IMG/VR virus record: IMGVR_UViG_3300023444_000001 | Span: 1 to 64,000 of that record | Source: a virus | Direction: 5' to 3' (one strand) | Length of the DNA: 64,000 nt | Part shown: positions 4,315-36,176 of the stretch, piece after piece | Position numbering within the stretch: the first letter of the stretch is position 1 | Layout: each line of letters begins with the position of its first letter | Position numbers and translations under genes: made by a program | Notes under the pieces: model-generated | The model's input: only the letters and a program-made list of their open reading frames with translations | Databases searched by the model: none | What the model was told of the DNA's origin: nothing

Positions 4315-4578
4315 TTACTTCAACTTTTTAGGAATTATACAAAAGAACTTAAAACCATCTTTTTTTGCCATATACTTATAATCCCCAGAAGGTCTCTTAT
4401 TTGGAGACTTATTAGCACAAAAATCCATTAAATTTGCCTGAAAAAACTCTGGAGAAACTTGAATTGCATATCCTTTATCCTCTACAATCCCTTCAGGTAA
4501 ATTAACTTTTGCTTCCTTCTTTTGAAGCAAAAATTTTTCAAAGTCTTTATTCACTTTACCCTCCTTTTCTAACCACAA
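4315..4578 (-). CDS. Hypothetical protein
   Basis: 87 aa ORF overlapping the upstream gene. Confidence 0.5.
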   Translation of the reverse strand: MWLEKEGKVNKDFEKFLLQKKEAKVNLPEGIVEDKGYAIQVSPEFFQANLMDFCANKSPNKRPSGDYKYMAKKDGFKFFCIIPKKLK

Positions 4579-9507: not shown

Positions 9508-10392
9508 TTAAGCAGACTCCATCAATACAGCATTATTTGCCTCAATCAACCCTGTACCCCAAATAGCGTACCAAGCCAAAGCGTGCTCCCTACCAAAATC
9601 AGTAACACCATTATCCCTCAACTCTACTGGAAGTCCTTGAGCCCATGCCAAACAATAATCACCAAACATAACTGCTTCATAAACAAGAACCGTACTCTGA
9701 ACCGTAGTCATCATAGTTGTTGAAACAAACCGAACATCCTCATATCTTCCAACTTCGCCAGTAAACAACTGACCTGGAGCACCATAAGAAGAAGCAGAAA
9801 TCCAATCAGGATCATCTCTCAAACTCCTCAACTGATGAGGATGAGCAAAACAAATATAAAAATCCCCATTAAACTTTGGGGCATCTGCTGATTCCAAATC
9901 TTCAACTGCATCTTTAATCAAATCTGTATCAAAAGTATTTGCCGCAGTCAAACTCGCCATATCCGCTACATTGTCAGCATACCGAGTATTTCCTGCTCCA
10001 TTTATTACAGCAGTCTGAAGTTGAGTATCAAGAACTTTAGCCATATTTCTACCAAGCAATTTTGCCGCTTCGGACAAAACATCATGAGTAGCCGTCTGAA
10101 GCAAATACTCTGAAACAGCCGTAGCCTTACCTTGCTCTGCCACAGTTATACTAACCGTAGTTGCAGCCAGAGCATCATAAGTCATCTGAACACCTTCAGT
10201 AAGAGCACCACCTCCTGCAAGATCAGAATACTTCGTAAACTGAATAGTCTGCCCAGGAGTTTTTCCAAGTTCAGTTTTCTCTTGAGCAAACTGGGCAAAC
10301 TTCAATACCGGCATTGCAGCGTAAAAAATCTCCTTACTATATACCGTCTGCAATACTTCCGGCAAATTAGTTGTCGTAGTAAGCGTAGACAT
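9508..10392 (-). CDS. Major capsid protein (N4-gp56-like family)
   Basis: KTELGKTPGQTIQF, LTEGV, HPHQLRSLRDDPDW, GEVGRYEDVRFV, DFGREHALAWY; follows the scaffold gene. Confidence 0.92.
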   Translation of the reverse strand: MSTLTTTTNLPEVLQTVYSKEIFYAAMPVLKFAQFAQEKTELGKTPGQTIQFTKYSDLAGGGALTEGVQMTYDALAATTVSITVAEQGKATAVSEYLLQTATHDVLSEAAKLLGRNMAKVLDTQLQTAVINGAGNTRYADNVADMASLTAANTFDTDLIKDAVEDLESADAPKFNGDFYICFAHPHQLRSLRDDPDWISASSYGAPGQLFTGEVGRYEDVRFVSTTMMTTVQSTVLVYEAVMFGDYCLAWAQGLPVELRDNGVTDFGREHALAWYAIWGTGLIEANNAVLMESA

Positions 10393-10418: not shown

Positions 10419-11207
10419 CTACTTTAGACCAAAACTCCTTTTAGGAGGTTTAGCCCCAATAACCTTCCAAATCTCGCTACGACTTTTTTCATACTCTTCT
10501 GGAGACATATTCTTTATTGCTTCCGCAGTAAATTCCGGAATTTCTACTCTTTCCGTTCGACTAATTACTCCAAAAGTCTTCTCTGGACCTGGACTTACAC
10601 TCTCTATATTTGAGTTTGTAGAGCCTCTCTTTTCCTCTAAAAGTACCTCTTTTCTAATACTTTCGTAAGCCATTTTAGCCTTATCAATACTCTCATCAAT
10701 TTCTTCTTTACTATTTCCCCCCACCAATTCTGGGACAAGTTTTCCTTCTGCTTTATTAAGTTTTTCCAATCTATATGCCTTTAATTCTGATTCATGTACT
10801 GCTTGATTAAGAGCCTCAATATTAGCAGTCAATTCTTCTATCTTCTTCATTGTAGCCTTATCTTTCTTTTGCTTCAACCGTTCTAATTTTTCCTTTTCAG
10901 AAAGTTTTTCACTTTCCAATTGCTCTACTGTTTCTGACAACTCTGATAATTTATCATTTAACTCCTTAATTTTCTTATCCCTTTCTTTTATTTTTTCTCG
11001 TTCTCTCTCTAAAGATTTATACATTTTAGCCTTTTCAGTTGCTCTTACTTCCTCCCTAATATTTCTTATTTCCTCCAGTATTTCTGGAGATTTCAACAAA
11101 TCCTTATTTTTTACTTGCAATTCTTCATCATTTGCTTCCTCTTTATTTTCAATAGAAGGTTCTACTTCAGTTGAACTTACTTCTTTAATATCATCTTCTT
11201 TTTCCAT
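10419..11207 (-). CDS. Capsid scaffolding protein
   Basis: Acidic coiled-coil with IKNMSPEEYEKSR near the C-terminus; directly upstream of MCP. Confidence 0.8.
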   Translation of the reverse strand: MEKEDDIKEVSSTEVEPSIENKEEANDEELQVKNKDLLKSPEILEEIRNIREEVRATEKAKMYKSLEREREKIKERDKKIKELNDKLSELSETVEQLESEKLSEKEKLERLKQKKDKATMKKIEELTANIEALNQAVHESELKAYRLEKLNKAEGKLVPELVGGNSKEEIDESIDKAKMAYESIRKEVLLEEKRGSTNSNIESVSPGPEKTFGVISRTERVEIPEFTAEAIKNMSPEEYEKSRSEIWKVIGAKPPKRSFGLK

Positions 11208-11471: not shown

Positions 11472-14400
11472 CTACCAAACTATTCTATCTTCAACCTTTG
11501 GTTTTCCTGGAGCACCATGTGTTTCAATCCCAGTTATATAACTTGTACGAGTTGTATCCGAATAATTTCCAAACGTATTATAAGCAAAAACTGTAAAAGA
11601 ATAAATAGTCTTAATATCTAATCCAGTAACTACAATCTGAGTATCTGCTTTTGCAACAGATGATTCTGGAGGAGCAATTCCAGTAGTATCCATTATACCC
11701 CAAACAGGAATTGTTCCTTGTTTATATCTTACAACATACCCAGCAATATCTGCTGAATCTCCTTGACTAAAAATCAAATTGACTGAACTTGATCCTACTT
11801 CTAAAGTATCTACATTTGTAACTGGATCAGGATAAACCCTATTCAATGTTTGCTCTGTAGCATAAGCCCCACCATTAGACCCGGTTGTATCAGCATACTG
11901 CATCAATGAATCAAAAGGAAAAACTGATACAGAATAATACTGTCCAGCCAATAATCCATTTATCGTCATTGTAGTATCTACCCGAGACAATGAAGAATCT
12001 ACTATTACCGTTCCTGAATCTTTTGAAGGTGGATACTGTTCAAACCCCACTTTATATCTTCCAGCATATCCCTTCAAATCAGAATCTTGATTTCTCTTAA
12101 ATATCACATCAAGACTCGTCTCTGTTGCATTTATTAACTGAACTCCTTGAGCCGGATTTGGAGGCCAATTTCCATGCGTATTAACTGTTACTGATGATCT
12201 CCCCAATGAATCAGCAACAGAATAATTCTGATTTTCATCAAAAGCAAATACTGATACTGAATATGTACTTGCAGAATCCAACCCAGTAATCACTAAACTT
12301 GTATCACTTCTGCTCAATGATGAATCTTGAGCAACAACTCCTTGACTCCTTGAAGTAGGTGCCGTAGAACCCTGCAAATATGTTGCAACATATCCTGCAA
12401 TATCAAGTGAGTCCCCTTTATTCCAAACCAAATCTATACTTGTAAATCCAACAGATGTTGTATCAACACCTAAAACATTATCTGGAGCCAAACTATCCCC
12501 TTTAGAAAAATAAACTACTAATTCAGGTCTTTTTGCCTGATCTAAATACTCGCTCGATGCAAAAGCATGACTATCTGGAGATTTATGCACATCCCACAAT
12601 TGTACATTCAAAAAATCTATTGGAACCGTCTGGCCTTTAATAACCTTTCTCATCAATGCTGTAACATCAAACTTATACTCCCCATAAGAACTCAAATAAA
12701 TTGAATCTATTGCTGACCCTCTACCACCCCCAGAATCCCATTTAATAGTATTCCCCATAGGAGATGCCCATGTAGCCAAACTATCCACCCACGAGTCTAT
12801 ACAAGCGTATAACACTATTGTATCCTGCCCTCCAGATACAAAATTATACTTCACAAAACTTGAATCTATTATATCATAAGGATGCACCAAACCAGAAAGA
12901 TCAAATTGACTGTAACCATATCTCCAAAAAGTTGAATCTGGTCCAGGATCATTTTTTACCAATATTGTCGCATTTCTTCCATAATTAGTATTCCTATCAC
13001 TTCCATCCTTTGTAAAAGTATCAAATGTTCTCCCCTTATAATCTGAACTACCTCTTTCTCCAACCGTAAAAGAAGAGTAAGACAATTCAAGAGTTGTAGA
13101 ATCTGCCCATGATCCAGAGCCTAAATTTGAATAATTATTGCTTTCATCAAAAGCAAAAACAGAAACCGAATAATTTTCCGAAGAATTTAATCCATTTATT
13201 CTAAATGTTGTATCTAATCTTGAACTTGTAGTTCCCCAAAGTTGTCCAGACTGATAATTTACTGGAGCATTATTTAACCCAACATTTGCTTTAATCATAT
13301 ACCCCGCAATATCAAGAGAATCCCCTTTATTCCAATGAAGCCTCATCCATGTTGTACCAACAGAATCTATTGAAACCCCTCCTACCATATCAGGAGGTAA
13401 AACATCTCCTACTGGAGCCAAACCATACAAAAAATAACTATCTCTAAAAGGTATTTTCAAACTATCATTAACAATAGAATAATCATTATGTGCTGAATCA
13501 CTCCAAACATAAGCAATATGATCTGTAATTCTTGCCGCTTGAATTTTTCTATAGGTAGAATCTGGCCCTGGAACATCAACTTTAACCGTATCCTGCTCAC
13601 GTAGATTAACTCCAACCCATCCATGCTCAAATACTCTTTGATAACCAATAAATCCCAGGGAATCTCCTGCTGTCTTTGATGGAATCAACTCTACATTATC
13701 TATCCAAATTGATCGAGATTCATTATTTCTTAAAATTGGAGTTATTCCAAATTCAACCTGTACATTTGTCAATAAACCTGAAGTCCTATTTGTATCTATT
13801 TCAACTGGAATATAAACTGTTCTCCACATTTTAGGAATATGAACACAATCTACTCTATATAAAGTTCTATTTGAATGTATTCTAACTCCAATCAATTTGG
13901 AATCAATAGATCGAGCATCAAACTTCAAAGTATACTCCGCTTGATTATTCAAAGAAAAAGTATTTGATCCAACTGCAAAATCATAAAAATCATTCTCTGG
14001 AACATTTATATTTCCATCTCTCCTATTAACATTTATCTGAATTTTCATAGCCCCAGAACCTGATTTAACCACATCTGTAACCCTTGAAATAGAAATTGAA
14101 TCAGAAGGCACTCCAGAACCTGATACAGACCATCCACTTAAATTTACATCAAATGTTCCATTCGTAATCTTATTCTCTTTTGAAAAATTTAACAATAAAG
14201 GTCGCCATTTATCTACAGGTTGTCCTAACCACCATCTATTAGGCCCAACACTATCTGGATTTGTAGAAATACCATTTGAATCAACAAAATACTCATCTCC
14301 CCAAACTGCATGAGGTTTTGCGTATTTCATTTTAGTCATTCCATTCCCACCAAATATTGTCATCAACCCAAGATTGAATCTTTCACTTCTAATTGCATCC

Positions 14401-15908
14401 TTTTCATTTGATGCAGATACTAATTGTGGTAAGTAATTATTGCTATATGAGGCATATCTATATCTTTTTGCTTGAGTCAATTCAAGCAAATTATCTAAAT
14501 CATCTCTATAATTACCTGCCCACCTACCATTAGTTAAATCCCAGGGGCTACCACCCCAACCAATCTCAGCCAAATTCATAATTTGAACTAAACTATCTTC
14601 TATTCCCATAAAAGACATACCTCTTGCATTTACAGACAAATAAATTAAACTATCATTTTGACTTTGAAACATACTTGCCGCCCTAATCAATGCAGAATCA
14701 CTTGATTCTCCCTTTTTCCCCACATGATTATAAAAATACGTATCATAATTAACTCCAGCACAAAGCAAAGTATTTCTCGAAGATAAAACTTTTTCAATAG
14801 TATTTATCTCAAGAGATGCCTTCAATTCATAAGGCCATACACCATGAATTGCTCCATCTCCTTCAAGTCCTTTTAACAAAATACCTTCCCAAGAAGAATA
14901 AACTCTTCCTCCTTGTTCTGCAGAACTCTGCAAATAATATACTGTGCTTCCATTAGGCCATGATGTAGCCGGATAAGAACCATTTTGCCAAGACCTTATA
15001 ACATACAATGAATCATTTCCAGTTCCCGAATTATCCCAAACTTTATCAACTCTACACCATTCATTTTTTTTAATTTGAATAAACGGACGATGAGAACCAT
15101 AAGTAATTCCATCTCCTCCATCAGGTGGAGGAAACATACTTGCATCATTTACCTTCAAAAATCTTCCACTACCTGATGCTCTCATTAAAACTGTACTATC
15201 ATTATATAAATATTCAATTGTATCCGGAACTGAAAATAACAAAGACTGAATAGAATCCGCCACAACAGTACCTATTGTATCTTGATATACTGGAGCAGTT
15301 AATCTAAGATTCATTAGTTGTATATCTGAATGTAATACTTCAATAAAATCTGGATTATAAATACTCAAAGAATCTAATCTATCACGTTTCTCTTGAACAT
15401 TTGACGTACCAGAACCGCCCAATTCTGTATCCCCATCCCATCCTATATCCAACCTTGCAACACGTTTAATTGTGTCCCCCATAAAATAACTCATGTTCAA
15501 TCCATTAAAAGTATATCCAACTTTTGGATATTCATAATCAAATCCCTGAATATACAAAGAATCTGTTCCAACTCTTGACCAAATACCAGAAGACTTCTTA
15601 AAAAGACTAAACCAAATAAAATCTTCTTCCGGCATTACTTTAGCCACAATAACAGTATCACTACTTGTAAATACTCTTGGAGGCAAAATTTTTACCCCAA
15701 TCGTGTCAAAATCAGGGTAACTCAACATATCATATGTAACTTTCAAACTATCCCCAGAACCCAACCCAATCCATCTAATGCCTATTGTATCTGGAACAGT
15801 CAATTTTTGTTGACTTTTGAGCCATACATCAAACGTTTGAGAAAAAATACTGGTTGAACTACAAACCAAAAATCCCATTACCAAATATACAATGTATAGT
15901 CTTTTCAT
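11472..15908 (-). CDS. Giant secreted multidomain protein: signal peptide, putative glycoside-hydrolase-like region, CBM4-like domain, DNRLRE-like domain, four FN3 domains
   Basis: Signal peptide MKRLYIVYLVMGFLVCSSTSIFS. LGQP...YQRVFEHGWVGVN. NGTFDVNLSGW...WIDNVEL. DTF...NTNYG...FDLS...FASSE...RPELVV. Four P-D/N...L-x-W/F...D-x-x-GY...YS-x-SVF repeats. Confidence 0.8.
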   Translation of the reverse strand: MKRLYIVYLVMGFLVCSSTSIFSQTFDVWLKSQQKLTVPDTIGIRWIGLGSGDSLKVTYDMLSYPDFDTIGVKILPPRVFTSSDTVIVAKVMPEEDFIWFSLFKKSSGIWSRVGTDSLYIQGFDYEYPKVGYTFNGLNMSYFMGDTIKRVARLDIGWDGDTELGGSGTSNVQEKRDRLDSLSIYNPDFIEVLHSDIQLMNLRLTAPVYQDTIGTVVADSIQSLLFSVPDTIEYLYNDSTVLMRASGSGRFLKVNDASMFPPPDGGDGITYGSHRPFIQIKKNEWCRVDKVWDNSGTGNDSLYVIRSWQNGSYPATSWPNGSTVYYLQSSAEQGGRVYSSWEGILLKGLEGDGAIHGVWPYELKASLEINTIEKVLSSRNTLLCAGVNYDTYFYNHVGKKGESSDSALIRAASMFQSQNDSLIYLSVNARGMSFMGIEDSLVQIMNLAEIGWGGSPWDLTNGRWAGNYRDDLDNLLELTQAKRYRYASYSNNYLPQLVSASNEKDAIRSERFNLGLMTIFGGNGMTKMKYAKPHAVWGDEYFVDSNGISTNPDSVGPNRWWLGQPVDKWRPLLLNFSKENKITNGTFDVNLSGWSVSGSGVPSDSISISRVTDVVKSGSGAMKIQINVNRRDGNINVPENDFYDFAVGSNTFSLNNQAEYTLKFDARSIDSKLIGVRIHSNRTLYRVDCVHIPKMWRTVYIPVEIDTNRTSGLLTNVQVEFGITPILRNNESRSIWIDNVELIPSKTAGDSLGFIGYQRVFEHGWVGVNLREQDTVKVDVPGPDSTYRKIQAARITDHIAYVWSDSAHNDYSIVNDSLKIPFRDSYFLYGLAPVGDVLPPDMVGGVSIDSVGTTWMRLHWNKGDSLDIAGYMIKANVGLNNAPVNYQSGQLWGTTSSRLDTTFRINGLNSSENYSVSVFAFDESNNYSNLGSGSWADSTTLELSYSSFTVGERGSSDYKGRTFDTFTKDGSDRNTNYGRNATILVKNDPGPDSTFWRYGYSQFDLSGLVHPYDIIDSSFVKYNFVSGGQDTIVLYACIDSWVDSLATWASPMGNTIKWDSGGGRGSAIDSIYLSSYGEYKFDVTALMRKVIKGQTVPIDFLNVQLWDVHKSPDSHAFASSEYLDQAKRPELVVYFSKGDSLAPDNVLGVDTTSVGFTSIDLVWNKGDSLDIAGYVATYLQGSTAPTSRSQGVVAQDSSLSRSDTSLVITGLDSASTYSVSVFAFDENQNYSVADSLGRSSVTVNTHGNWPPNPAQGVQLINATETSLDVIFKRNQDSDLKGYAGRYKVGFEQYPPSKDSGTVIVDSSLSRVDTTMTINGLLAGQYYSVSVFPFDSLMQYADTTGSNGGAYATEQTLNRVYPDPVTNVDTLEVGSSSVNLIFSQGDSADIAGYVVRYKQGTIPVWGIMDTTGIAPPESSVAKADTQIVVTGLDIKTIYSFTVFAYNTFGNYSDTTRTSYITGIETHGAPGKPKVEDRIVW

Positions 15909-17134
15909 TGACTCTTGCCTTTCATCCTTAACATTGTATTCTTAATATCCTCAAAATTCTTTGCCTTCGTTGATATACTCAATTCATCTACAACTCCATC
16001 CCAAGGATAATTTATTACTCCAGATGTATTCTTAATTGCTCCAATCCAAACTTTCATTGAATCAGCAATATTCCATCCTGTAATTCCAGAAGGAATGGCC
16101 GGACTTAAAACATTAGAACTATCTTTTATCACACCATTTATGTACAATTTTATTTCAGACAAAGAATCTGAATATACAGAAGCAATATAATACCATTTAT
16201 TTACCTGCAATTTATTTTTTGCTGATAAAATTGTATTTGTTCCCGCAGTATCAATATATCCTACCTTAAACAATGAATCTGACCCATCAACATAAAATCC
16301 CCAAAATCCCTTCATTCCATAAGTAGAACAAACCATCATTGTATCGGAAGATACTGCTGTTTCCGGTTTAATCAGCATTTCAACAGTCTTTGCTACCAAA
16401 GAACTATCAGCATTTTTTTCTGCTAATTGAGTTGAACCGTCAAAATCTAAACCTCCAACCCTCCCATTCAAAGCAGTCTTATAATAAGGAGAAACCTTTG
16501 TAATTATACTATCACCAAAAGAAGTCTCTGAATATAATGTCTGATTAAATTTCCAAAGAAAAACTGTATTTGAATCAGGATCAAGAGTTCTATTTGTATA
16601 ACCCATTCTATTAAAAATCTCATACAAATCAGACCAATCTACCTTCCTATCTCCCGTAATATCATAAATTGAATACCCTGAATTATTCCAATGTTCTGCA
16701 ATCAAATTCAAATCAACACCATTTACAATACCATCTTCATTTACATCCCCTCTCAATCCAACAAACCTTGTACTGTCCACAGATAAACAAGATTCAACCA
16801 AAGGATTATTTTTCAAATATCGTCCAATCCGAATATAATACCTAAAAGATGAATCCCATAGTGCAAACGAAAGATGAACGATCCCATTTGAATCTGGACT
16901 TACATACCCAAGGTCTATAGTATCTGGATATAAGCCAATTACACTCCCCAAATAAACTTTATAAGACATTGAATCCGAAACAACTTGACTTGAATCTATT
17001 GTACAATTTCCTGAATCAGCATAAACTGTATTTCCATCCAAAATGCTAACTGAAACAACTTTATTCTCATGGGTTATACCTTTGGAATAAAGTAAAAAGA
17101 AAAGCAAAATCAAACAAGAAATAACCTTTTTCAT
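15905..17134 (-). CDS. Secreted dockerin-like plus LamG protein
   Basis: Signal peptide. Duplicated Ca-binding motifs GDVNEDGIVNGVDL and DITGDRKVDWSDL. LamG signature LDFDG...TVEMLIKP...WYYIASVY...LYING...IG...WDGVVDEL. Confidence 0.8.
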   Translation of the reverse strand: MKKVISCLILLFFLLYSKGITHENKVVSVSILDGNTVYADSGNCTIDSSQVVSDSMSYKVYLGSVIGLYPDTIDLGYVSPDSNGIVHLSFALWDSSFRYYIRIGRYLKNNPLVESCLSVDSTRFVGLRGDVNEDGIVNGVDLNLIAEHWNNSGYSIYDITGDRKVDWSDLYEIFNRMGYTNRTLDPDSNTVFLWKFNQTLYSETSFGDSIITKVSPYYKTALNGRVGGLDFDGSTQLAEKNADSSLVAKTVEMLIKPETAVSSDTMMVCSTYGMKGFWGFYVDGSDSLFKVGYIDTAGTNTILSAKNKLQVNKWYYIASVYSDSLSEIKLYINGVIKDSSNVLSPAIPSGITGWNIADSMKVWIGAIKNTSGVINYPWDGVVDELSISTKAKNFEDIKNTMLRMKGKSQ

Positions 17135-17575
17135 CTATACAACCTTAACTCTATATTGAGAAAATGAACCTTTTTCATTGATAGGGCTTAATCCATCTCC
17201 TTGTATAATTCTAAAAATTCCATCTGTAATCCAAATCCATGCTACTCCTGTAACAAGAGCATTAAAATAAAGACTAAACAAACTGCCCGAACCATTTATG
17301 CCTTTTCTTGATCCTAATCGTGAATACCCAAAAGCAATTTTTCCTATATCTCCTTCAATATACCCCATATCTAAAGCAGTTTCAATATTACCAAAATTAT
17401 CCAAAAATCCACCTTTTTCAACTACAGGAGATAAATCAGGATAACTTGTAGAACTTTTAACTTGAACTTTAGATGTATCACTTATGCGAATAGTACCTGC
17501 TACACCATGAAGTTCCCTTACTCCATGAACAATAAAATTTATCTTAAAATCATTTCCAACCAATACTTTACTCAT
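17135..17575 (-). CDS. Cohesin-like domain protein
   Basis: 146 aa beta-sandwich pattern VGNDFKINF...GGFL...GKIAFGYSR...GINGSGSLFSLYFNALVTG, next to a dockerin gene. Confidence 0.65.
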   Translation of the reverse strand: MSKVLVGNDFKINFIVHGVRELHGVAGTIRISDTSKVQVKSSTSYPDLSPVVEKGGFLDNFGNIETALDMGYIEGDIGKIAFGYSRLGSRKGINGSGSLFSLYFNALVTGVAWIWITDGIFRIIQGDGLSPINEKGSFSQYRVKVV

Positions 17576-17922
17576 TACAAATTCTCTAAAATCTCTGTTC
17601 CTCCAAGAGACCGCAACTTTTGAGCCTTAACCATTTCTAATTCTAAAAGTAATTTATTCTCTTCAAAAAGCAAACTTTCAAATTCATTTCCCGCAGAATA
17701 TACATCTACAAGACTATCTCTATTATTTATATTTACTCGATCTAATGCTTTCCCATATTGTTTTTCCGCATTTTTTCTCTTCTTTTCCACTTCTTCCAGT
17801 ATAAATTTAATCCTATGTTCTTCCACAATAGCATCTCTTGCTAAATCAGCCCTTTGAAACAAAAGTGCAGTATATTTTTTCCACATCTCATCAATAGTTA
17901 TCTTCGGAGACAAATTACTCAA
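17575..17922 (-). CDS. Coiled-coil hypothetical protein
   Basis: TTG start with GGAGG RBS; TAATG overlap with the cohesin gene. Confidence 0.6.
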   Translation of the reverse strand: MSNLSPKITIDEMWKKYTALLFQRADLARDAIVEEHRIKFILEEVEKKRKNAEKQYGKALDRVNINNRDSLVDVYSAGNEFESLLFEENKLLLELEMVKAQKLRSLGGTEILENL

Positions 17923-17943: not shown

Positions 17944-20900
17944 TCAGTCTTTGGAGTTGATATAATTCTTCCCTTCAACTCTATCACCAAAAACTTTTTT
18001 TAATTCTTTTTCCAATTTTGAATTTCGAACTCGAATAATTTTCACATCCTCAAAGTTTATTCCTCCCTCATGCACAAATTGAACTTCTTTCCGAAATACA
18101 TTTGAAGCAATTTTCTTCCCTTTAACCTCCAAATTCCCAGTTACCCCTTTATATAAATTTTCTACCCCAGAAAAAGTTTGCCCCTTAATTTTAAACAAAG
18201 TTTCCTTCTGAAAAAAGATATCTTTATCCAATACAAATTTGAACTCTCTATTTTTTCCGACAAATTTCGAGAAATCTAATTCTCCTCCTATCTTTCCCTC
18301 TTCTTCTAATGTAGTTGGAATCCTCTTAAACCATAAAGCCTTCATTCCATCTTCACTTTTCAAATTCAAAATAATAGGCTTCAATTCTCTATCTATTGTC
18401 TCCACCATCTTTTCTCTTGGAACTGACTCAATATAAAACTTTTTCAAATTATCTAACATCTCCGACATGAATGTATCACCAATATCTTCCTGCTTTATAG
18501 GAATTAACTCCGAAAATCTCTTTGTAGCAAAAATCCTATTACGAGCCATAATATCTATTGGAGAATCAGAAGTCAAAATATAACTATAGACATCCCTATC
18601 CTGACCCAAACGAAAATTTCTCCCATTTCTCTGAATAAATGTCTTAAAATTCTTCGGCAAATCAAGATGAATTGTAACTTTAGCCATTTGAACATTTATT
18701 CCTTCAGACTTTGCTGAAGTTAGAATCAAAAATTTCTGCTCTGGAATTTCTGAAAACTTCTTGAGAATCTTTTGCACATCCATATTCTTTGTAGAACCTG
18801 TTAAAGCAACAGCCCTATCCTTCCCAAGAAAATTCCTCAAATTCTTTGCTACTTCATTTGATTCTGTATGAATTATAATCTTATCATCGGGATGTTTCTT
18901 AGCAATTTTCAAAATTTCCTTATAAAAAGCATTATCTTTCCCTGAACCAGAACGCAAAACCTTCATTAAATCGTGCCGCCTATGTGTTTCTAATTGAACT
19001 AATTCTTTTGTTGCTCCCTTTCTAATCAACTCCTGCTTCTTAATTTCATACATTTTTTCCAAATTTCTATATTCCATTTTTTGAACTTTAGTCAACTTTA
19101 CCTTTATTAACTGTTTATTTCTCATTTCAACAGGTAAAGCCTCATTAAAATAATCAATCAATCTGATCCCTCTTATTGGAGCCTTTGCAACAAATATTGA
19201 ATCATCGAACAAACTATTAAATGTCTTAACCATCAAAGGCCGAGCAAAGTTATTCTCTGTTGTCAACCCACCAAAAACTCTTCCTCCAAATTTTGCCCCA
19301 GAAAACATATCGACAAATTCTCTCTTTGTCATTCCTGTTTTTCCGGGCTGTAACCATTCAATAGTATCCCACATCTGCCCAATATTATCCTTTATAGCCG
19401 TACCAGTAAGACCAACCTTATATTTAATCCTTTTTGAAACCAAATCTCTTAAAATCCTTGATTCTTTAGAATATGCTTCATAATCAAACACATCCCCAAC
19501 AGGAGTTAAATCATGAATTTCATCTATAACAACCATATCATACTTCATCCGTAATTCTTTAACCAATGAAGCCGCATCCTTATGTGTTATCACATCTATT
19601 TTATACTTACCAGGATTTTTCAACATTTTCAACTCTATGTCTCTTTTCCCTGAAATCAATCTTCCCTTATATTTACTAAACTTTTTAATCTCACTAACCC
19701 AATTCATTTTTGTTCCTGATGGAACTACAACTAAAGCCCTTTTTACTTTTCCTGCTGAAATTAAATCTGAAATAGCAGAAATAGATGTCGGAGTTTTTCC
19801 AAATCCCACTCCAGCATTGAGTAAAACATTTTTCTGCTGAACAATAAATTCCTCTGCCGCCCTTTGAACTGGTTTCAAAGTTATACCTTCTTTAATACCC
19901 AAAATCTTTCTATCAAATACCCCTCCCTTCAAAACAATATTATTTTTTATATCTTCAAACTCATTTTGCCAATTTTTAATTCTCTTCCATCGAATAGCAT
20001 GAATATCAAGCCATTCTTCAAAATAAAATTTCCTTCTTTCCGGAAATCCTCTAACCCATTTAGGAATAACATAATAGGCTTTCCCAGTTTTAACATTCTT
20101 CCTGATATAAACATTCAAATACCTCATAGCCTTATTAAATTCCTTTGGAGTTCCTTGACTCCACTTCAATAACAATTCGGGAGAAGGCAAATTTTTTGCC
20201 ATATCTGCACTTATACCCCAATCTATCAAAGTTTTACTTCTTGAACGATAAGGCCAAATCCTATTAGTATAATTTATAAACTCTGATCCACCCAAACTAT
20301 ATGGATCACTCTTAACAAGAGCATCTCTAACAATAGCATTTACTATCTCATCAGGAGGAATAAATTTTACAGGAATAAATCTTTCATCATCAATATCTAA
20401 AACATCAATTCCAATTTTTTTTAATTCATCTCTTGAACCCACATAAGCAATTTCCTTAACCCCATCTCTTGCTTCCGTTATAGCCTCTGGAGTAAAAGAT
20501 TTCAATGAACCTTTAACTCTAAAAAAGACTTTATGATATTTTTCTGGATTTATCTTAAACTGGTAAAATTTACCTATTTTTCCAAGTATTCCATCTTTTT
20601 TAACCTGCAAACCTAAAGTTTCTAATCTTCGCAATGCAGTTTCTCTTGTTTTTCCAAGTACAACAAAAACATCCTTTGGAGACATTAAAGCCAACCGAAT
20701 CTGATCTACAGCATTCATACTACCCAGTATTCCACCTAATTCACTTTGTGCTTGTGAAAATAAACTATCAGCAATTACTCTTGAAGCATTTTTTCCTTTG
20801 AATCCAGCCTTTCTCATAGTCCGCAAAGTTGAATATCCATCATTAAGTAATCCATCAACACTCTTCAATCCACGCTTTGTATAAATTCCAATTCTTTGAT

Positions 20901-22269
20901 GAGTAACCAACTTATCTAAAACCTCTAATAATTTTTTTCTGTCCACAGTTTTTGTACTTTGTTTTATTGCTTCAACAAGAACTTGACTTGCATTTTCAAC
21001 TCCAAGCAAATTAAACTTTTCCCAAGTAAATGCTGGTTGCCCCAAAAGTTGAAAAGCAATTCCATTCATAGCATCAAAAGCACCTCTTTTGACCGGAAGA
21101 GAAAAAGCCGCATTTACAAAATTCTCTACCTCATAATAATTACTATTTATAGCCTCCTTCAATTCACTCTCTGATTTCTTAAGAAGAACTTTTGCAAATG
21201 TTTTCATCCTACCCTTTCCCCCAACAGACTCCATTTTTGCAACTTCTCTAACCAAAGACCGAAATGTAGGCCCACTCATTTTATCTAATAAAGCAAGAGT
21301 CTCACCTGAAGCAAACCTTTTTGCTCGTTCAATAACAATAGAAGGTAATCCTTTATGAACTAAATCTCTTGGAGAAAATTCTTGAGGAGATAATCCAGCC
21401 CTTTCAAAGGCTTCTCTTCTACGAGCCATAAGAGCCGTATAGACTGGACTTAATCCACATTGACAATATGGATGGGGAAATGTTGGGGCCTCATCAGTAT
21501 AATATACCCCTCGAAGAGAAAGATTTCCAACAGAAAGACCCTCTCCTTCAAGAGGTGTTGCATTAGCCAATTTTTCACAAATCTCTACTCCATGTTGATC
21601 CAAATGATTTGAAGACAAATCCCACTTAACAAGAGGAACTCCCCTTTCTTTTGAAAAAAGAACAGTAGCCTCCTGATAAGCCCTTCCTGCTTCTGATCTA
21701 ACTAATCTTTGTCCCCATTTTAATTCTGAAGCCCCATAAGGAGACCTTCCCGGAATATTATAAGTCAATCTTCCTTTTAACTGTTGTCTAACAAAACTAA
21801 TGCTTTTCCCCTTTTTAAGAACTGAATACCCAAAAGTTCTTATACGTTTATCCAAATAATTTAATCTATCTTCAATAGTTAATCCATTAAAGGGCTTAAA
21901 ATATTGCATAAAAGCCCTTTTCTTAAAATCCTTAATTTCCTCCATCGAAATTGAAGATAATCCCATTTTTCTAAAAATTCTTTGCTGATGATAAAATGCT
22001 CTGTTAATAGATTCTGAAACTGCTTTATTTGTTTTAACCTGAAGCCCAAACATCAATTCTTTTGTATTTTGTCGAAGTATTTCTCTTGAAAACTTTTCAT
22101 CCTCTCGAAGTAAAAATCTCTCACCCTTAAATGAAGATGTAACTGTATTTGCAAGATCAGTATATGCTCCATACAAATTATCTCCAATACGTTTACTTTT
22201 TCTTACATTTATATCTAACGCATGAACAAAACGCTTTCTCTGTATTTTCGTAGATAAATACTTAGGCAC
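17944..22269 (-). CDS. MuF/SPP1-gp7-like head morphogenesis protein fused to an SNF2-type helicase
   Basis: MuF part: RLVRSEAGRAY, VKWDLSSNH...C, PHPYCQC. SF2 part: GVGFGKT, DEIH, TGT, SEGINVQ, QRNGRNFRLGQ. Directly downstream of portal. Confidence 0.85.
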   Translation of the reverse strand: MPKYLSTKIQRKRFVHALDINVRKSKRIGDNLYGAYTDLANTVTSSFKGERFLLREDEKFSREILRQNTKELMFGLQVKTNKAVSESINRAFYHQQRIFRKMGLSSISMEEIKDFKKRAFMQYFKPFNGLTIEDRLNYLDKRIRTFGYSVLKKGKSISFVRQQLKGRLTYNIPGRSPYGASELKWGQRLVRSEAGRAYQEATVLFSKERGVPLVKWDLSSNHLDQHGVEICEKLANATPLEGEGLSVGNLSLRGVYYTDEAPTFPHPYCQCGLSPVYTALMARRREAFERAGLSPQEFSPRDLVHKGLPSIVIERAKRFASGETLALLDKMSGPTFRSLVREVAKMESVGGKGRMKTFAKVLLKKSESELKEAINSNYYEVENFVNAAFSLPVKRGAFDAMNGIAFQLLGQPAFTWEKFNLLGVENASQVLVEAIKQSTKTVDRKKLLEVLDKLVTHQRIGIYTKRGLKSVDGLLNDGYSTLRTMRKAGFKGKNASRVIADSLFSQAQSELGGILGSMNAVDQIRLALMSPKDVFVVLGKTRETALRRLETLGLQVKKDGILGKIGKFYQFKINPEKYHKVFFRVKGSLKSFTPEAITEARDGVKEIAYVGSRDELKKIGIDVLDIDDERFIPVKFIPPDEIVNAIVRDALVKSDPYSLGGSEFINYTNRIWPYRSRSKTLIDWGISADMAKNLPSPELLLKWSQGTPKEFNKAMRYLNVYIRKNVKTGKAYYVIPKWVRGFPERRKFYFEEWLDIHAIRWKRIKNWQNEFEDIKNNIVLKGGVFDRKILGIKEGITLKPVQRAAEEFIVQQKNVLLNAGVGFGKTPTSISAISDLISAGKVKRALVVVPSGTKMNWVSEIKKFSKYKGRLISGKRDIELKMLKNPGKYKIDVITHKDAASLVKELRMKYDMVVIDEIHDLTPVGDVFDYEAYSKESRILRDLVSKRIKYKVGLTGTAIKDNIGQMWDTIEWLQPGKTGMTKREFVDMFSGAKFGGRVFGGLTTENNFARPLMVKTFNSLFDDSIFVAKAPIRGIRLIDYFNEALPVEMRNKQLIKVKLTKVQKMEYRNLEKMYEIKKQELIRKGATKELVQLETHRRHDLMKVLRSGSGKDNAFYKEILKIAKKHPDDKIIIHTESNEVAKNLRNFLGKDRAVALTGSTKNMDVQKILKKFSEIPEQKFLILTSAKSEGINVQMAKVTIHLDLPKNFKTFIQRNGRNFRLGQDRDVYSYILTSDSPIDIMARNRIFATKRFSELIPIKQEDIGDTFMSEMLDNLKKFYIESVPREKMVETIDRELKPIILNLKSEDGMKALWFKRIPTTLEEEGKIGGELDFSKFVGKNREFKFVLDKDIFFQKETLFKIKGQTFSGVENLYKGVTGNLEVKGKKIASNVFRKEVQFVHEGGINFEDVKIIRVRNSKLEKELKKVFGDRVEGKNYINSKD

Positions 22270-23680
22270 CTACTTTCCCCTTAAACATATCAGCAAAAGT
22301 ACCTCCTCGACCACTTATACTTGCTTCTTGTTCTAATTGAGTTTTATGCTCTTTATCAATTCGAGCCAATAATTCAGATATATTTTTAATTCCAAGACGA
22401 CTTAAAGCCCCTTCACGATCTATCAACCCCAAAGATAATTCCATTTCTAACTCTTGCAACAAAGTAATTCTATCCTTGGGCAATGGGTCCTTAAATACTA
22501 CCGAAGTATCATATGCTTCAAAATCATCTCCATCCTTCAATTTTGGAATTTTTTTCTTTGTCTCCAAAATCTTCAAGATAAGTCGATTTGTTCTTTCTAA
22601 TCCACGTCCATACGTAAGCCTTTTTAACTTCATTCTTTCTACAAGCGGCATATATTGAACATGAAGTGCCGCCGCAGATGTATTTGAAATAGGCTGCATT
22701 TGTCCTAAAGTGGCTTCAGGAACATTAGACATCTCATGTAAACTCTTTTTTAACAATTCCAAATACTTTATCGAAGAAGATAAATTACCTGCCAGATTCA
22801 AAAACTTAACATCTCCATCCGTTGGTATATTTGACCAAACCCGCCCCGCAGACCTAATAACATTCTTAAATGAAACTCCTTTTATAACTGTAATAGGGGC
22901 ACCATAATAGGCTATTGTATCTGAAACATCCGAAATTTTCTCATTATATTCCAAATTCAAATCTATTAAATTTATCATATCACTTAAACCCCAAAATACT
23001 CCACTTATAGGCAAATTTGAAATATGCACCAAAGGAATCTCCATAATAGGATTTTCCAATGATTCCTTTAATTCATCATCAAGGTATAATTCAATTTTAT
23101 CTTCATAAAAAATCTCTTTATATTTTCTTCTAACTCTTTCTCCAGTTTCAGTATTAAACTCATATATCGGAAATTCAATTTTTACCCATATAAGTCTTTC
23201 TCTATCACCTGGACTCCATACCACATCAACTAATCTGCCATCAACGACATTTAATGTAATCTTCTGCGAAACTTCATCAAACCAAATTTTTAGCCATGAA
23301 TCCCCCGTAACTCCTCCCTCTTGAACTAATTCATACAAACGTAATCCACGAAAACTATCAGAACCCCAAGCCTTTATTAAGGCTTTTTCTCCCAAAGACT
23401 CATTAACCTTCGGCAAATTAAATTCCAACCCATTTCCAATTAAAGCAAAAGAAACCTTATCTACAAATGCTCTAACAAAATTCACAGTTAATTGAGATTC
23501 TCCCTCTTTTCCCTCAAATATCCAATGCTTTCCAAGATACCACTTCCAATATTGATTATATTTTCTCCTCCTTTGTTCAAAAGCAACATCTTGATCTTCA
23601 GAAACATAATACAGAGGACCTTTAACTGCATTTTGTCCCGACTTAGATTTGCTAAAATCTATTCTCTCATTAGTAGCCAA
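22262..23680 (-). CDS. Portal protein (SPP1 gp6-like)
   Basis: YLGKHW, NFVRAFVDK, GGVTGD, IPLVHISN, ISNTSAAAL; follows terminase. Confidence 0.9.
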   Translation of the reverse strand: MATNERIDFSKSKSGQNAVKGPLYYVSEDQDVAFEQRRRKYNQYWKWYLGKHWIFEGKEGESQLTVNFVRAFVDKVSFALIGNGLEFNLPKVNESLGEKALIKAWGSDSFRGLRLYELVQEGGVTGDSWLKIWFDEVSQKITLNVVDGRLVDVVWSPGDRERLIWVKIEFPIYEFNTETGERVRRKYKEIFYEDKIELYLDDELKESLENPIMEIPLVHISNLPISGVFWGLSDMINLIDLNLEYNEKISDVSDTIAYYGAPITVIKGVSFKNVIRSAGRVWSNIPTDGDVKFLNLAGNLSSSIKYLELLKKSLHEMSNVPEATLGQMQPISNTSAAALHVQYMPLVERMKLKRLTYGRGLERTNRLILKILETKKKIPKLKDGDDFEAYDTSVVFKDPLPKDRITLLQELEMELSLGLIDREGALSRLGIKNISELLARIDKEHKTQLEQEASISGRGGTFADMFKGKVGA

Positions 23681-25334
23681 ATATATACCTCCTATTTAAT
23701 CTTCTCCTTCTTGCTACATCCTTAAAAATATTAAAATCATCGTCCTGCATTTCGACCATTGTTCCATCTTTAGAAGCCAAAACCATTAAGGCTAAACTAT
23801 CAGCAAAATCATCTCTTGAACCTTTAATCATCGGGTCTTTTCCACAAACCAAAAATGCTCCACGCCAAGATTTTGTCAAATTAGTAACTTGCTCCTTAAA
23901 TCTTTTCCATCGAGCAAGAGATTTATCAGCCTTTTTACCCGGAACATGAATTCTCCCCGCATTAACTTCAGTCAACAATGTTTTCCACAAAATACTCTTA
24001 GCAGATAATCCTGAAAATGGATAGCCTCTTACAACTACACTTGAATCATATCTATCATAATAACCAATAAATCTATCCGCAACCGGATCACCTTTACCTT
24101 GACTATCAATATAAACTACTCTAACATTGTAATTATTCAAAAATTCTACTATCTGTCCAAATTGACTTTCATGATCTTCCCCAAATAATTCCAACCAATT
24201 TTCAACATACAACTGGGCATTTCCTTCCTCATCCACAGAATCTAAATCTATCTTCCCAACAGTACAAACAGTGGAACAAGGTGATTTTCCAATGTCTATT
24301 CCAGCAACATGAGTTCCCTCTTTATCTAATGTAACAATATGCCAAGACTCATCAACCATTTTTTCAAAAAACATATCTTCAGTAATTAGTGTCCCTTGAG
24401 AAAAAAGCCATTTTATTTCATAACTCATCTTAAATTCATCAGAATCTTCTCCTAAACGATCTTTCTCTTTCTTAATAAACTGGGCATATTTCAAATGAAT
24501 AGAGTTATGATCTTTTTCATACTGTTTCTTTTTATCTCTTATGGCTATCTGATATGGTACCTCTGTATGATAATCTCCTAATCCATCCGCTTTTCTCCGC
24601 CTATTTCTCTTTACAGCATAAAAAAAATCAGATTTCAATCTATTTGGACTTCCCGTTTTAACTATAACCCCATTATAAGCCGCAAGCATCGGATGAATTG
24701 ACTTCAAAACCTGCATACTATCGGCATCTTGAGCCTCATCAATAAAAATAAGCATATAAGTCTTACTCTCAATTAAAGCCTGTTTATTGCAAGTAGCCGC
24801 CTTACAAAATGAACCATTAGAAAGACGTAGCCCCCCATATCTTCTATCCAAATTAAGATCAAGGTCTGGATCACTTAATATCATCTTAGCATGATCTGTT
24901 TCAATTCGCATTTTGGTCCGAAGAAATGTTGTATCTACTTGATCTGCTCTTGGAGCAAACATACCTACCCAGATACCATTCTTATAAATCGAAAGTTTAT
25001 CCGGATAATATTCTGCAAGGGTAGGTAACAAAATCATTGCTGAACCTGTAATTCCAGCAACAGTCTCTGTTTTTCCTGATTGTCGTGCAAATAAGGCTGT
25101 TATTTCTTCTCCATTATTTAGCAATAAAGACTTGAAAACCTTAAATGCAAACTCTTTCTCATAATCATAAAAATTTAACTTTGTCAATTTTTCCGCAAAC
25201 ACTATAAGCCGCTCAGCCAGAAAATTAACATCAAATTCCGGCATTTTATCCGGAACATCATTAGATTCCTGATTCTCTAATGCAACTTGAGCATTATATT
25301 TCTCTAAACTAACCCTTCGAGCAATTTTAGGCAT
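23670..25334 (-). CDS. terL: Terminase large subunit
   Basis: Walker A ARQSGKT, Walker B IFIDEAQ, nuclease motifs GIDIG and DDFADS. Confidence 0.93.
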   Translation of the reverse strand: MPKIARRVSLEKYNAQVALENQESNDVPDKMPEFDVNFLAERLIVFAEKLTKLNFYDYEKEFAFKVFKSLLLNNGEEITALFARQSGKTETVAGITGSAMILLPTLAEYYPDKLSIYKNGIWVGMFAPRADQVDTTFLRTKMRIETDHAKMILSDPDLDLNLDRRYGGLRLSNGSFCKAATCNKQALIESKTYMLIFIDEAQDADSMQVLKSIHPMLAAYNGVIVKTGSPNRLKSDFFYAVKRNRRRKADGLGDYHTEVPYQIAIRDKKKQYEKDHNSIHLKYAQFIKKEKDRLGEDSDEFKMSYEIKWLFSQGTLITEDMFFEKMVDESWHIVTLDKEGTHVAGIDIGKSPCSTVCTVGKIDLDSVDEEGNAQLYVENWLELFGEDHESQFGQIVEFLNNYNVRVVYIDSQGKGDPVADRFIGYYDRYDSSVVVRGYPFSGLSAKSILWKTLLTEVNAGRIHVPGKKADKSLARWKRFKEQVTNLTKSWRGAFLVCGKDPMIKGSRDDFADSLALMVLASKDGTMVEMQDDDFNIFKDVARRRRLNRRYIFGY

Positions 25335-26302
25335 TCTTCTTTTAACTCCGCAATAATTTCATAACTTCTTAAATCCACTAAAACCAAAACATCTGGAGGT
25401 TTTTTAGGTGCCTTTTCAAGCCAAGAAAAAGCCTCCTCAATATCTCCTTTTCTTATTAAACTTCTTGCCAATATTACAAAATCTTCTCCAAAATTCGGAT
25501 TCTCCAGTATATTTTTCTTAACTAAACTAATTGCATCATCAAAATTTTCTAATCGTAAACTACTTTCTGCTTTCAATCTTCTTGCATATTGAATATTATA
25601 TAAAATATAAGACTTTTTCTCTACTATATCAGCAACTTTATATCCTTCATGAAATTTTTTATGCTCAATCAATTCTCTTGCAAAATGAAGCAATAACCAT
25701 CCTTCTTTATCATTCTCAAAATCTACTGCTTTTTCAACTAAGTCTAAACTCTGTTCTCTTCTCCATTTCTCTCTTTCAAGATTTTTTCTTTTCCTGCATT
25801 CAATCCAAACTTTATCAGGAAGAATAACATCCATGAAACCAGCACCAATCAATCTATTGTGAACATCTCCTATCCACCAACCTTTATTAACCCGCCATAT
25901 TCTATTTTGAAATCCCCTAAACCTGAACCTAACTTCGTTAGTTTTTCTATGCTTATATGGTCTTCTAAAATATGAAAGAGCATATCCAGCCACTTTTTTC
26001 CCAGAATTATCTAAAAGACCTCTTAAATATTCAGAACTTCCCCTTAAAGTTTCATCTCCATCAACCATAATAGCCCATTCAGTTTTAACAAATGAAGAAC
26101 AAACATTTCTTAAATGAGCAAAAGAATTATTCCATTTCTCTTCTAAAACTTTTGCTCCAAATTGTTTTGCCAATTCTACAGTTCCATCCTTTGATCCAGT
26201 ATCTAAAATCACCATATCATCAACAAAAGGCACAATACTCTCCAATGTTTCTTTTAATTCCTCCTCTTCATCTCGTACAATCATTGATAAAGTTAAACCC
26301 AT
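25304..26302 (-). CDS. Family 2 glycosyltransferase with C-terminal TPR-like helices
   Basis: MIVRDEE, DTGSKDGT, W-x-x-SFA-x-x-RN, VDGDE, VHN; helical C-terminus. Confidence 0.88.
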   Translation of the reverse strand: MGLTLSMIVRDEEEELKETLESIVPFVDDMVILDTGSKDGTVELAKQFGAKVLEEKWNNSFAHLRNVCSSFVKTEWAIMVDGDETLRGSSEYLRGLLDNSGKKVAGYALSYFRRPYKHRKTNEVRFRFRGFQNRIWRVNKGWWIGDVHNRLIGAGFMDVILPDKVWIECRKRKNLEREKWRREQSLDLVEKAVDFENDKEGWLLLHFARELIEHKKFHEGYKVADIVEKKSYILYNIQYARRLKAESSLRLENFDDAISLVKKNILENPNFGEDFVILARSLIRKGDIEEAFSWLEKAPKKPPDVLVLVDLRSYEIIAELKEECLKLLEGLV

Positions 26303-34745: not shown

Positions 34746-36176
34746 TTATTTCCCAAAAATTTCCCGCAAAATTCCTTTTCCTTTGGCTCGTATAAAAACC
34801 TCATCCCTATTATCTCCCATATTCTTCAATGTCTGAGCCATATCCATCAACGTTCTTAATTGATCGGTAACATTTGGATCAAGAACTCCTCCATCAGATT
34901 TTTCTATGTGAACAGCATGAAAAGTTCTCTGAGCCTCTATCTCAATAACTGTCTTTACAAGATTTAACAAATCAGAAGAACCTTCTATTTTGAAAGTAAA
35001 ATCATATCCACAAAGACTTCCTTCTTTATATCGGGGACAATTTTCATCCAAATAACACGTATTACAGGAAATCTTTTCAACTATCCTTTCATCTAAAACA
35101 GGGACTTTTGGCTTTTTTTCAATAACTTCACTTTTTACTTCAACAATTTCATTGTCTCTTTTCATACTTGCTTTCACCCCCTTATTTCCTAACTTCTTGG
35201 CTTCTTTTATATCTTCCGGACTTAACCAATAAGCATTTTTACATTGATATTTATACCAATCAGTCCACTTTTTCCACATGAAAGCATTGATGATATTACA
35301 AGGTCTTGCCAATCCATTCTTAAATCCTTCCCAATCAAACTTGTCCCCAATAGTTTCTTCTATTTCTTCCTTATACTTTTTTTCTATTTTGCTTTTGAAT
35401 TTCTTTCTCAATATATCGGACTTTTTTCTCGTATCAGCAATTATCTCAAAATTTTCCATTCGTCCATGTGAAGAGAAAAATATTGCTCCAAATCTTCCAC
35501 CAGAAATCCAACTTGTAGAATCTACAGTAAAAAATGGTCTTCTTACTATATCTTTTTCACTACTTAAACCAAACCCATGAAGCAATATTTTCTTTTTTCT
35601 TGCAAATCTAAAATACCGATGTAAAGTCAAATCACTCCGTACCCAACCTGACCCTGTTCCAATGTAATCATAGGCATCAAACCATCCTAAATCTTCTATT
35701 TCTTTATTTGACTCACCTTGCAAAACAGGTATCAGATGTATTCCCATGTCTTTCGCCTTATTTAACCACTTTACTCTCTCTGCTTTTCCAAAATCCTCAG
35801 AAGTAAAATCTAATTCAGCGAACGCTTGAACAGATTCTCTCATCTTAAAGGCAAAATCTAAATATTCATTATAATACTGCTCTATATCAAGACTTTTCCC
35901 TTTTGCCCCTCCAGATTTTTCTAAATCTATATTCAACGTATATCCACCTGAATCAATAAATACAAAATCAAAGTCTCTCAAAAATTCTTCTTTTAACTGT
36001 TCTATAGACTTTTTCCTTATCAACTTTCTTAAATAGTAAAAAGACAATAATACATTTCTAATTCCTATCATTCTCAATATACTTCTAAACTCGTTTGTCT
36101 CCGCACCAGCAAAAAGCAAACAAGTATTGTATATCTTTGGATAACATCGAAATTCCATGCCATTAAATTCTTGCAT
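34746..36176 (-). CDS. dpdA: DpdA-like (TGT-fold) deazaguanine DNA transglycosylase with a C-terminal Cys4/helical extension
   Basis: FIDSGGYT, ELD, IPVLQ, HGFG, VDSTSW; clustered with folE/queD/queE/queC; C-terminal CNTC-x5-C-x8-C. Confidence 0.78.
   Translation of the reverse strand: MQEFNGMEFRCYPKIYNTCLLFAGAETNEFRSILRMIGIRNVLLSFYYLRKLIRKKSIEQLKEEFLRDFDFVFIDSGGYTLNIDLEKSGGAKGKSLDIEQYYNEYLDFAFKMRESVQAFAELDFTSEDFGKAERVKWLNKAKDMGIHLIPVLQGESNKEIEDLGWFDAYDYIGTGSGWVRSDLTLHRYFRFARKKKILLHGFGLSSEKDIVRRPFFTVDSTSWISGGRFGAIFFSSHGRMENFEIIADTRKKSDILRKKFKSKIEKKYKEEIEETIGDKFDWEGFKNGLARPCNIINAFMWKKWTDWYKYQCKNAYWLSPEDIKEAKKLGNKGVKASMKRDNEIVEVKSEVIEKKPKVPVLDERIVEKISCNTCYLDENCPRYKEGSLCGYDFTFKIEGSSDLLNLVKTVIEIEAQRTFHAVHIEKSDGGVLDPNVTDQLRTLMDMAQTLKNMGDNRDEVFIRAKGKGILREIFGK

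Follow-up and report, generated by a model that had tools for sequence, protein, structure and literature searches.

A MuF-like minor head domain joined to an SNF2-type ATPase in a lineage of uncultured phages: a putative virion-carried DNA translocase

Why would a phage join a minor head protein to a DNA motor, and where would such a motor work? The question is raised by one gene in the 64,000-nucleotide (nt) stretch of viral DNA analysed here (positions 1 to 64,000 of IMG/VR virus record IMGVR_UViG_3300023444_000001, called the window below). The window is part of an 81,937-bp virus record that is complete with direct terminal repeats, and nearly all genes of this phage genome are located on the minus strand. 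Directly after the portal gene stands an open reading frame (ORF) whose product begins with a MuF-like domain and contains an SNF2-type ATPase of helicase superfamily 2 (SF2). On the analogy of known head-associated proteins, the reading preferred here, with confidence only a little above even, is that this product would be a portal-targeted, virion-carried translocase of double-stranded DNA (dsDNA) acting on the incoming genome. Because the same MuF-SNF2 fusion recurs in related phages, the motor probably travels inside the virion and reaches the cell along with the DNA.

Architecture of the fusion protein

The window's protein is called P0001, and together with 15 relatives it makes up the 16 fusion proteins referred to throughout, which come from separate 50%-identity clusters. 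The gene and its parts are as follows, with lengths in amino acids (aa).

17944..22269, minus strand: MuF-SNF2 fusion ORF, GTG start, 1441 aa
21400..22269, minus strand: MuF/SPP1-gp7-like minor head domain, residues 1-290, core ~60-280
20500..21147, minus strand: predicted helical middle module, residues ~375-590, common to all 16 fusion proteins
19900..20499, minus strand: extra segment of ~200 residues, residues ~591-790, shared only by the relative P0009
18505..19899, minus strand: SNF2-like SF2 ATPase with both RecA-like lobes, residues ~791-1255
17944..18504, minus strand: C-terminal ~185 residues and stop codon, matched in phmmer only by itself

The protein has a mass of 164.9 kDa and an isoelectric point (pI) of 9.8, and it is basic in every segment (pI 9.0-10.0; 9.97 for residues 291-600). 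A GGGGA Shine-Dalgarno sequence lies ~8-12 nt upstream of the GTG, and 8 nt at the start of the gene are shared with the end of the portal gene, its TAA stop included. A preliminary description of this DNA had reported a single 1441-aa ORF after the portal, which is borne out; its account of the architecture was correct, although it omitted the minus strand and the C-terminal region of ~185 aa.

The N-terminus is MuF-like in the wider sense, as judged by PHROG profiles, fold and gene position. Residues 1-330 were used as the query, and the 'head morphogenesis' profile phrog_1657 was matched at 1.7e-10 (residues 62-277 against profile positions 69-299 of 337). Weaker matches were obtained to phrog_115 (4.5e-5), phrog_4728 (3e-5) and phrog_19443 (6e-4), the same three profiles that are matched by SPP1 gp7 (phrog_115 at 1.5e-66). 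Mu gp30 reaches only 1.8e-4 against phrog_115, in the same profile region as the fusion protein; by these phrog_115 scores, the fusion protein and Mu F are at a similar distance from the gp7 family profile. A tblastn search of 50,697 phage records with the N-terminal domain returned 68 matches, all in actinophages (best E 3e-7), and these genes are annotated as MuF-like minor capsid protein, head/capsid maturation protease, or similar. Residues E193, R196, W216, H222, C231 and the motif P265-H-P-x-C-x-C271 are conserved in the core, and the P-H-P-x-C-x-C motif is found in 121 of 134 relatives of the domain.

The predicted fold points the same way. An AlphaFold2 model of residues 1-330, built with 52 relatives, has a predicted local distance difference test score (pLDDT) of 83.7 and a predicted template modelling score of 0.80. 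In BFVD, which holds predicted viral structures rather than solved ones, 78 matches were obtained at E<=1e-3, with a top template modelling score of 0.62 (query-normalised). Among the 50 matches listed, those with names are mostly minor capsid, MuF-like and head morphogenesis proteins, and fusions of MuF with ADP-ribosyltransferase or zeta toxin are included. Moreover, the place of the gene directly after the portal gene is that of MuF in SPP1 and Mu. The earlier assignment of the first ~280 aa to MuF thus holds in the phrog_1657 match, the actinophage annotations and the predicted fold. A complex prediction with the portal (61-row alignment) and the MuF domain (52 rows) gave a score of 0.00 against a mark of 0.32, a result that carries no weight for or against binding. 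The 81,937-bp genome has 246 ORFs, of which only the fusion gene is MuF-like; therefore, whatever MuF does for this phage, the fusion protein does.

For the ATPase part, several Pfam families were matched above their cut-offs: Helicase_C at 1.5e-15 (residues 1117-1222; 57.8 bits against 23.5), DEAD at 1.7e-12, ResIII at 4.2e-12 and SNF2-rel_dom at 7.3e-9 (residues 811-1003; 35.6 bits against 24.9). The 'DNA helicase' profile phrog_62 was matched at 4.2e-56 across residues 721-1250. The closest solved structure is the Sulfolobus SNF2/Rad54 core 1z63 (1.4e-15, residues 817-1256, both lobes), followed by HELLS, DDM1, ISWI, INO80 and RapA. Motifs Q, I, II (DEIH), III (TGT) and VI are all intact, and Q802, G822xGKT826, D916-E917-x-H919, T955-G-T957 and Q1213/R1217/R1220 are invariant in all 16 fusion proteins, in agreement with the intact SF2 motifs noted before. 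Between motif III (955-957) and the start of the Helicase_C match (1117) there are ~160 residues, a length compatible with an SNF2-type helical insert. The NCBIfam models of four subfamilies remained below their cut-offs: DpdE (66.5 bits against 500), DrmD (63.1 against 610), RapA (54.1 against 576) and ZorD (35.7 against 1500). These models match the helicase lobes only, and the fusion protein therefore belongs to none of these subfamilies. From its sequence, the cargo is predicted to be an active SNF2-type, ATP-driven dsDNA translocase; for the whole reading with virion delivery included, we place the odds slightly on the positive side.

An RNA library from the same sample contributes two very short contigs of 87 and 105 nt, which map to 19785-19917, where the helicase domain begins. 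Of these, one maps partly to both strands (19785-19844 minus, 19818-19844 plus) in a fold-back-like manner, and the contigs are too small to bear on expression.

Between the two recognisable domains, the model of the middle region is mostly helical, with pLDDT of 57-75 only at residues ~375-590 and below 50 at ~591-790. Residues G423, E510 and G553 are conserved in the middle module in the 16-row alignment. A phmmer search with residues 331-780 matched only P0009 (6.9e-32). The C-terminal ~185 residues have no NCBIfam match, and no relative of them is present even in P0009.

Recurrence of the fusion in related phages

Is the fusion a peculiarity of one assembled sequence, or a feature of a phage lineage? 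Residues 1-330 were run with HMMER against 1.84 billion representative proteins, and 134 others were matched at E<=1e-3, most of them stand-alone proteins of ~300 aa. Among the 23 relatives of at least 600 aa, the helicase is present in 15 (E 1e-23 to 5e-51); a further 2 are repeat proteins with spurious multiple matches, and 6 have no recognisable cargo. When other cargo was sought, no meaningful Pfam family was found in P0008, P0030, P0098, P0112, P0127, P0139, P0076 or P0120. The repeat proteins P0051 (2963 aa) and P0064 (1553 aa) were left out of the fusion count. In these two, a piece of the MuF core of 30-60 residues (~190-260) is matched 18 and 8 times, respectively, each time weakly and at a spacing of ~95-100 residues; the repeats could be derived from a MuF-core segment or be due to chance.

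The fusion proteins can be divided into 3 clades:

Clade 1: P0001, P0009
Clade 2: P0010, P0017, P0021, P0026, P0049
Clade 3: P0028, P0034, P0084, P0100, P0104 with P0088, P0090, P0122, P0132

The helical module is common to all 16, which argues for a single origin of the fusion.

Six distinct loci of fusion genes were fetched (L002, L003, L004, L005, which equals L007, L006 and L023). In all six, the fusion gene stands directly after a phrog_64 / SPP1-type portal gene. The corresponding genes of the window are:

23670..25334, minus strand: large terminase, phrog_2 at 3.2e-22
22262..23680, minus strand: SPP1-type portal, PF05133 (SPP1_portal) at 5.3e-34 and phrog_64 at 7.8e-45
10419..11207, minus strand: scaffold-like protein of 262 aa, a homologue of the gene between the fusion and capsid genes in related phages; its role as a scaffold is inferred by gene position alone
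9508..10392, minus strand: major capsid protein, Pfam Phage_capsid_3/4

In L002-L006, the fusion gene is followed by an ORF of ~100 aa, a scaffold-like gene and a phrog_1357 capsid gene, while the L023 contig ends 320 nt past the fusion gene. Compared to the window's portal, those that precede the fusion genes in L002, L003, L006 and L023 are 35-38% identical, and the window's capsid protein is 42-50% identical to the phrog_1357 capsids of L002 and L003. In blastp, the scaffold-like protein shows 27-31% identity (E 4e-12 to 2e-16) to its counterparts L002_260, L003_245, L004_258 and L006_218. It can be seen that the place of the fusion after the portal is fixed in a lineage of ~80-100-kb uncultured phages.

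In the window, four genes at 11472-17922 (~6.7 kb) separate the fusion gene from the scaffold-like gene, namely a 115-aa ORF, a 146-aa ORF, one for a 409-aa protein with dockerin and LamG, and one for a protein of 1478 aa with FN3 and CBM96. This stretch has the look of an insert in an otherwise conserved head operon, because L002-L006 have only one or two ORFs of ~100 aa at this place.

These relatives also bear on the explanation that the ORF is an assembly chimera, or that its ATPase is a decayed relic without motor function. In a second assembly, of a possible source run, the ORF is covered by two contigs, one ending at 20302 and the other starting at 20304. This break speaks for a chimera; however, the contigs that abut at 20303 have equal depth (38.5 and 40), and the break may be a variant position in the population. 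The alignment with P0009 is collinear across 20303 (27.7% identity over 1311 aa), and the phmmer match of the middle region forms one stretch. Moreover, the same architecture is present in 15 other proteins and at 6 loci, with the ATPase motifs all invariant. A chimera or relic is therefore close to refuted, and the fusion noted in the preliminary description is upheld by 15 relatives in three clades and six loci directly after the portal. A contig of depth 2 with a skip of 1187 nt and sides of 20 letters was set aside as noise.

Another explanation is a polyprotein of convenience, in which the helicase is cut off by a head protease or by itself, or is made from an internal start, and serves replication, recombination or transcription in the cytoplasm without becoming part of the virion. 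Peptidase processing of multidomain phage proteins is a described theme (Iyer et al. 2017, PMC5512222), and the middle region, whose model is of low confidence, could be a flexible linker. On the other hand, the middle module itself is conserved in all 16 proteins. Additionally, no helicase was found within the fetched flanks of short MuF relatives at any of 10 loci (L010-L019), so no split form is seen, and the fusion is therefore not a merged pair of neighbouring genes. The phage also already has a DnaB-like helicase, a family A polymerase (PolA), RecA and a second SF2 helicase, which form a separate module 30-40 kb away. A polyprotein of this kind is therefore considered improbable. The candidate of a replication helicase was ruled out, given that separate module.

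P0001 and P0009 had no related loci among the viral contigs, and a clade alignment against genome contigs gave 22 pattern stretches, of which none was confirmed, with no prophage or host found. A shared-word homologue search with the whole protein returned 7 matches, only P0001 itself at full length and the others in the helicase only. Among the 50,697 GenBank phage records, none covers at least 80% of P0001, P0026 or P0084, and the matches are in the helicase part only.

Possible action of the motor on incoming DNA

Where and when would the motor work? A guide is SPP1 gp7, a few copies of which are brought inside the procapsid by binding to the portal (PMC6316719). Virions lacking gp7 assemble, and only ~25% of them are infectious; gp7 is dispensable for assembly and matters at the initiation of infection (PMC6316719). 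For gp7-like proteins with C-terminal toxins, delivery at infection has been proposed (PMC6316719); the preliminary description, which had named the position of MuF near the portal and its toxin cargo as background, agrees with this source. By analogy with gp7 and the MuF-toxin fusions, the N-terminal domain would bind the portal during procapsid assembly, and a few copies of the fusion protein would be enclosed in the head. At infection, the basic 165-kDa protein would then exit together with the DNA or slightly before it, and with the ATP of the new cell at its disposal, the motor could track along the entering genome. Its most likely job would be to clear or outrun DNA-bound host factors, such as restriction or defence nucleases and nucleoid proteins; alternatively, it may make the incoming DNA accessible for first transcription. 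Such a role would amount to a DarB-like early protection without a methylase.

Alternatively, the motor could work in the producer cell, tethered to the portal during procapsid assembly or packaging and then kept in the head or lost, with tasks that might include dealing with the DNA end or arranging the DNA that comes into the head first. The fusion gene does lie in the packaging/head operon, between portal and scaffold-like genes at the loci examined, and ATP is present in the producer cell and absent from the free virion. We know of no precedent for a producer-cell motor tethered at the portal. The dispensability of gp7 for assembly, described above, speaks against this explanation. Furthermore, between the window and L023, the locus of the closest fusion relative P0009, identity is 43% for the terminase and 38% for the portal, compared to 27.7% for the fusion protein. 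The fusion protein thus diverges faster than portal and terminase, which fits a protein in conflict better than a core part of assembly. We consider a motor of the producer cell unlikely, if less so than the polyprotein.

The preferred reading, of a motor ejected with the genome, can be compared to DarB of phage P1. DarB is a head component with an N6-adenine methylase and a SWI2/SNF2 ATPase, and it protects incoming DNA (PMC5512222), in agreement with its earlier characterisation as a virion-delivered anti-restriction protein with a helicase domain. The analogy itself stands in part. Like DarB, the fusion protein is large, has an SNF2-like ATPase and is encoded beside the portal gene (in P1, darB beside prt), and head association and the proposed action on incoming DNA (for DarB, PMC5512222) would be common to both. 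However, no methyltransferase of the EcoKI/TaqI-like N6-adenine kind is seen N-terminal to the ATPase, and similarity to DarB is confined to the helicase motifs, namely motif I and motifs V-VI in BLASTP (E 3e-4 and 7e-5). A divergent methylase in the middle region was tried as a candidate and rejected, there being no Pfam family in residues 281-800 and no [DNS]PP[YFW] motif (motif IV of adenine methylases) in any of the 16 fusion proteins. Targeting would also differ, being by way of the fused MuF domain in the window's protein. DarB reportedly enters the P1 head by DarA/Hdf-dependent incorporation.

Other known systems resemble the fusion protein in part. As in SPP1 gp7 and Mu gp30, the gene follows the portal gene directly and the predicted fold is similar, and PHROGs 115, 4728 and 19443 are common to the fusion protein and gp7. 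As in the MuF-toxin fusions (PMC6316719, PMC5512222), cargo is attached C-terminally to a MuF domain; in place of a small toxin or an enzyme that modifies nucleotides, however, the cargo here is an SNF2 motor of ~465 aa behind a conserved helical module. Polyvalent proteins are likewise multidomain and encoded among late or virion genes, and their network has both MuF and the SWI2/SNF2 ATPase as hubs, whereas the ATPase is described there together with an adenine methylase (PMC5512222). The virion RNA polymerase of the N4 type is also a nucleic-acid enzyme of very large size that is packaged in the head, leaves it at ejection and works on the incoming genome (PMC11445570; PMC5512222), as is proposed for the fusion protein; it is of a different enzyme class and has no MuF domain.

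Several results weigh against the preferred reading. Pfam PF04233 (Phage_Mu_F) does not recognise residues 1-330 even at E<=10, has no match in a six-frame search of the whole genome, and matches none of 52 aligned N-terminal relatives at E<=0.01. The miss therefore counts against strict membership of the Phage_Mu_F family. When the profile of the relatives was compared to the single sequence of SPP1 gp7, hhalign gave a probability of 0.7% and hmmsearch only 8.5 bits, neither being significant. The HPxCxC motif of the fusion protein is absent from SPP1 gp7 and Mu gp30, in which the equivalent stretch ends in ...NCRC. Further along the protein, Pfam at E<=10 was empty for residues 281-800 and 1251-1441, and the ~500 aa between MuF and helicase are without assignment, as had been described. 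The protein atlas gave no usable match for residues 290-790, and its best match for residues 1255-1441 (0.79) is below the threshold for a lead. Structure prediction of the middle region, proposed in the preliminary description, was run for residues 331-800 with a 6-row alignment, but it has a mean pLDDT of 47.1 and led to no fold assignment; among 48,161 chains the best Z was 7.5, to generic helical hairpins (model residues 112-200). The related virus records, five in number, are all fragmentary (10-48% complete) and give no information on co-occurring genes. Finally, a protein of 165 kDa must unfold to pass the tail, although precedents exist.

A more specific form of the preferred reading carries less confidence. 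It is doubtful that the protein is a motor of infection initiation of a so far undescribed kind, which after ejection would move along the entering genome and either help to draw it in or strip bound proteins from it, be they nucleoid or defence proteins of the host or, if co-packaged, the miniature histone of the phage. Such a motor would be a 'chromatin remodeller' brought into bacteria by the virion. A probe for the phage histone matched none of the five fragmentary related records, which speaks neither for nor against the histone link.

The general theme, in which MuF carries cargo and SNF2 ATPases form part of polyvalent proteins associated with the virion, has been known since 2017 (PMC5512222). 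The new element is a bare SNF2 motor, without a methylase, as conserved MuF cargo across a lineage of uncultured phages. No description of a MuF-SNF2 fusion was found in the literature searches made; MuF with SNF2 and without a methylase does not appear in the main text of PMC5512222 as searched, and the supplements or external architecture list of that paper may hold one. If the protein is indeed ejected, phages would deliver ATP-driven DNA translocases as effectors of the first minute. This would bear on the escape of incoming DNA from restriction, on genome entry and on the onset of transcription, and SNF2 enzymes would gain a definite function in the infection of bacteria by viruses.

Other genes of the window and of L023

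Apart from the head operon, a few genes may be mentioned. The phage genome probably carries a 7-deazaguanine modification. QueC homologues are present in the window (39111-39812; Pfam QueC 1.6e-17) and in L023 (3252-4040; 8.6e-16).

A second pair of genes is shared by the two loci: L023:1392-2768 (458 aa) is 30% identical to window 34746-36176 (476 aa), and neither member of the pair has a Pfam match. The QueC and 458-aa genes of L023 are located just upstream of its terminase gene. A probe with PF01702 (TGT) gave nothing above cut-off in the five related records (10-48% complete), nor in the window's own genome; because of the latter, the probe is uninformative on a link to DNA modification. 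With no Pfam match in the 458/476-aa pair and no TGT match in the window's genome, an identification of this pair as DpdA is not confirmed.

The second SF2 helicase (ResIII 3.9e-28, with Helicase_C) and a 600-aa protein adjoin each other on the same strand at 60828-62183 and 62193-63995, upstream of the DnaB and PolA genes, and the 600-aa protein has a weak match to a CobT-type VWA domain. At 4556-6661, a 701-aa protein has a whole-protein Pfam match to Ribosomal_S5_C at 3e-11, in which no single stretch passes alone; this is probably a repeat or compositional effect. Additionally, a family 2 glycosyltransferase with a TPR-like tail is encoded at 25304-26302, and its gene overlaps the large terminase gene from directly upstream.

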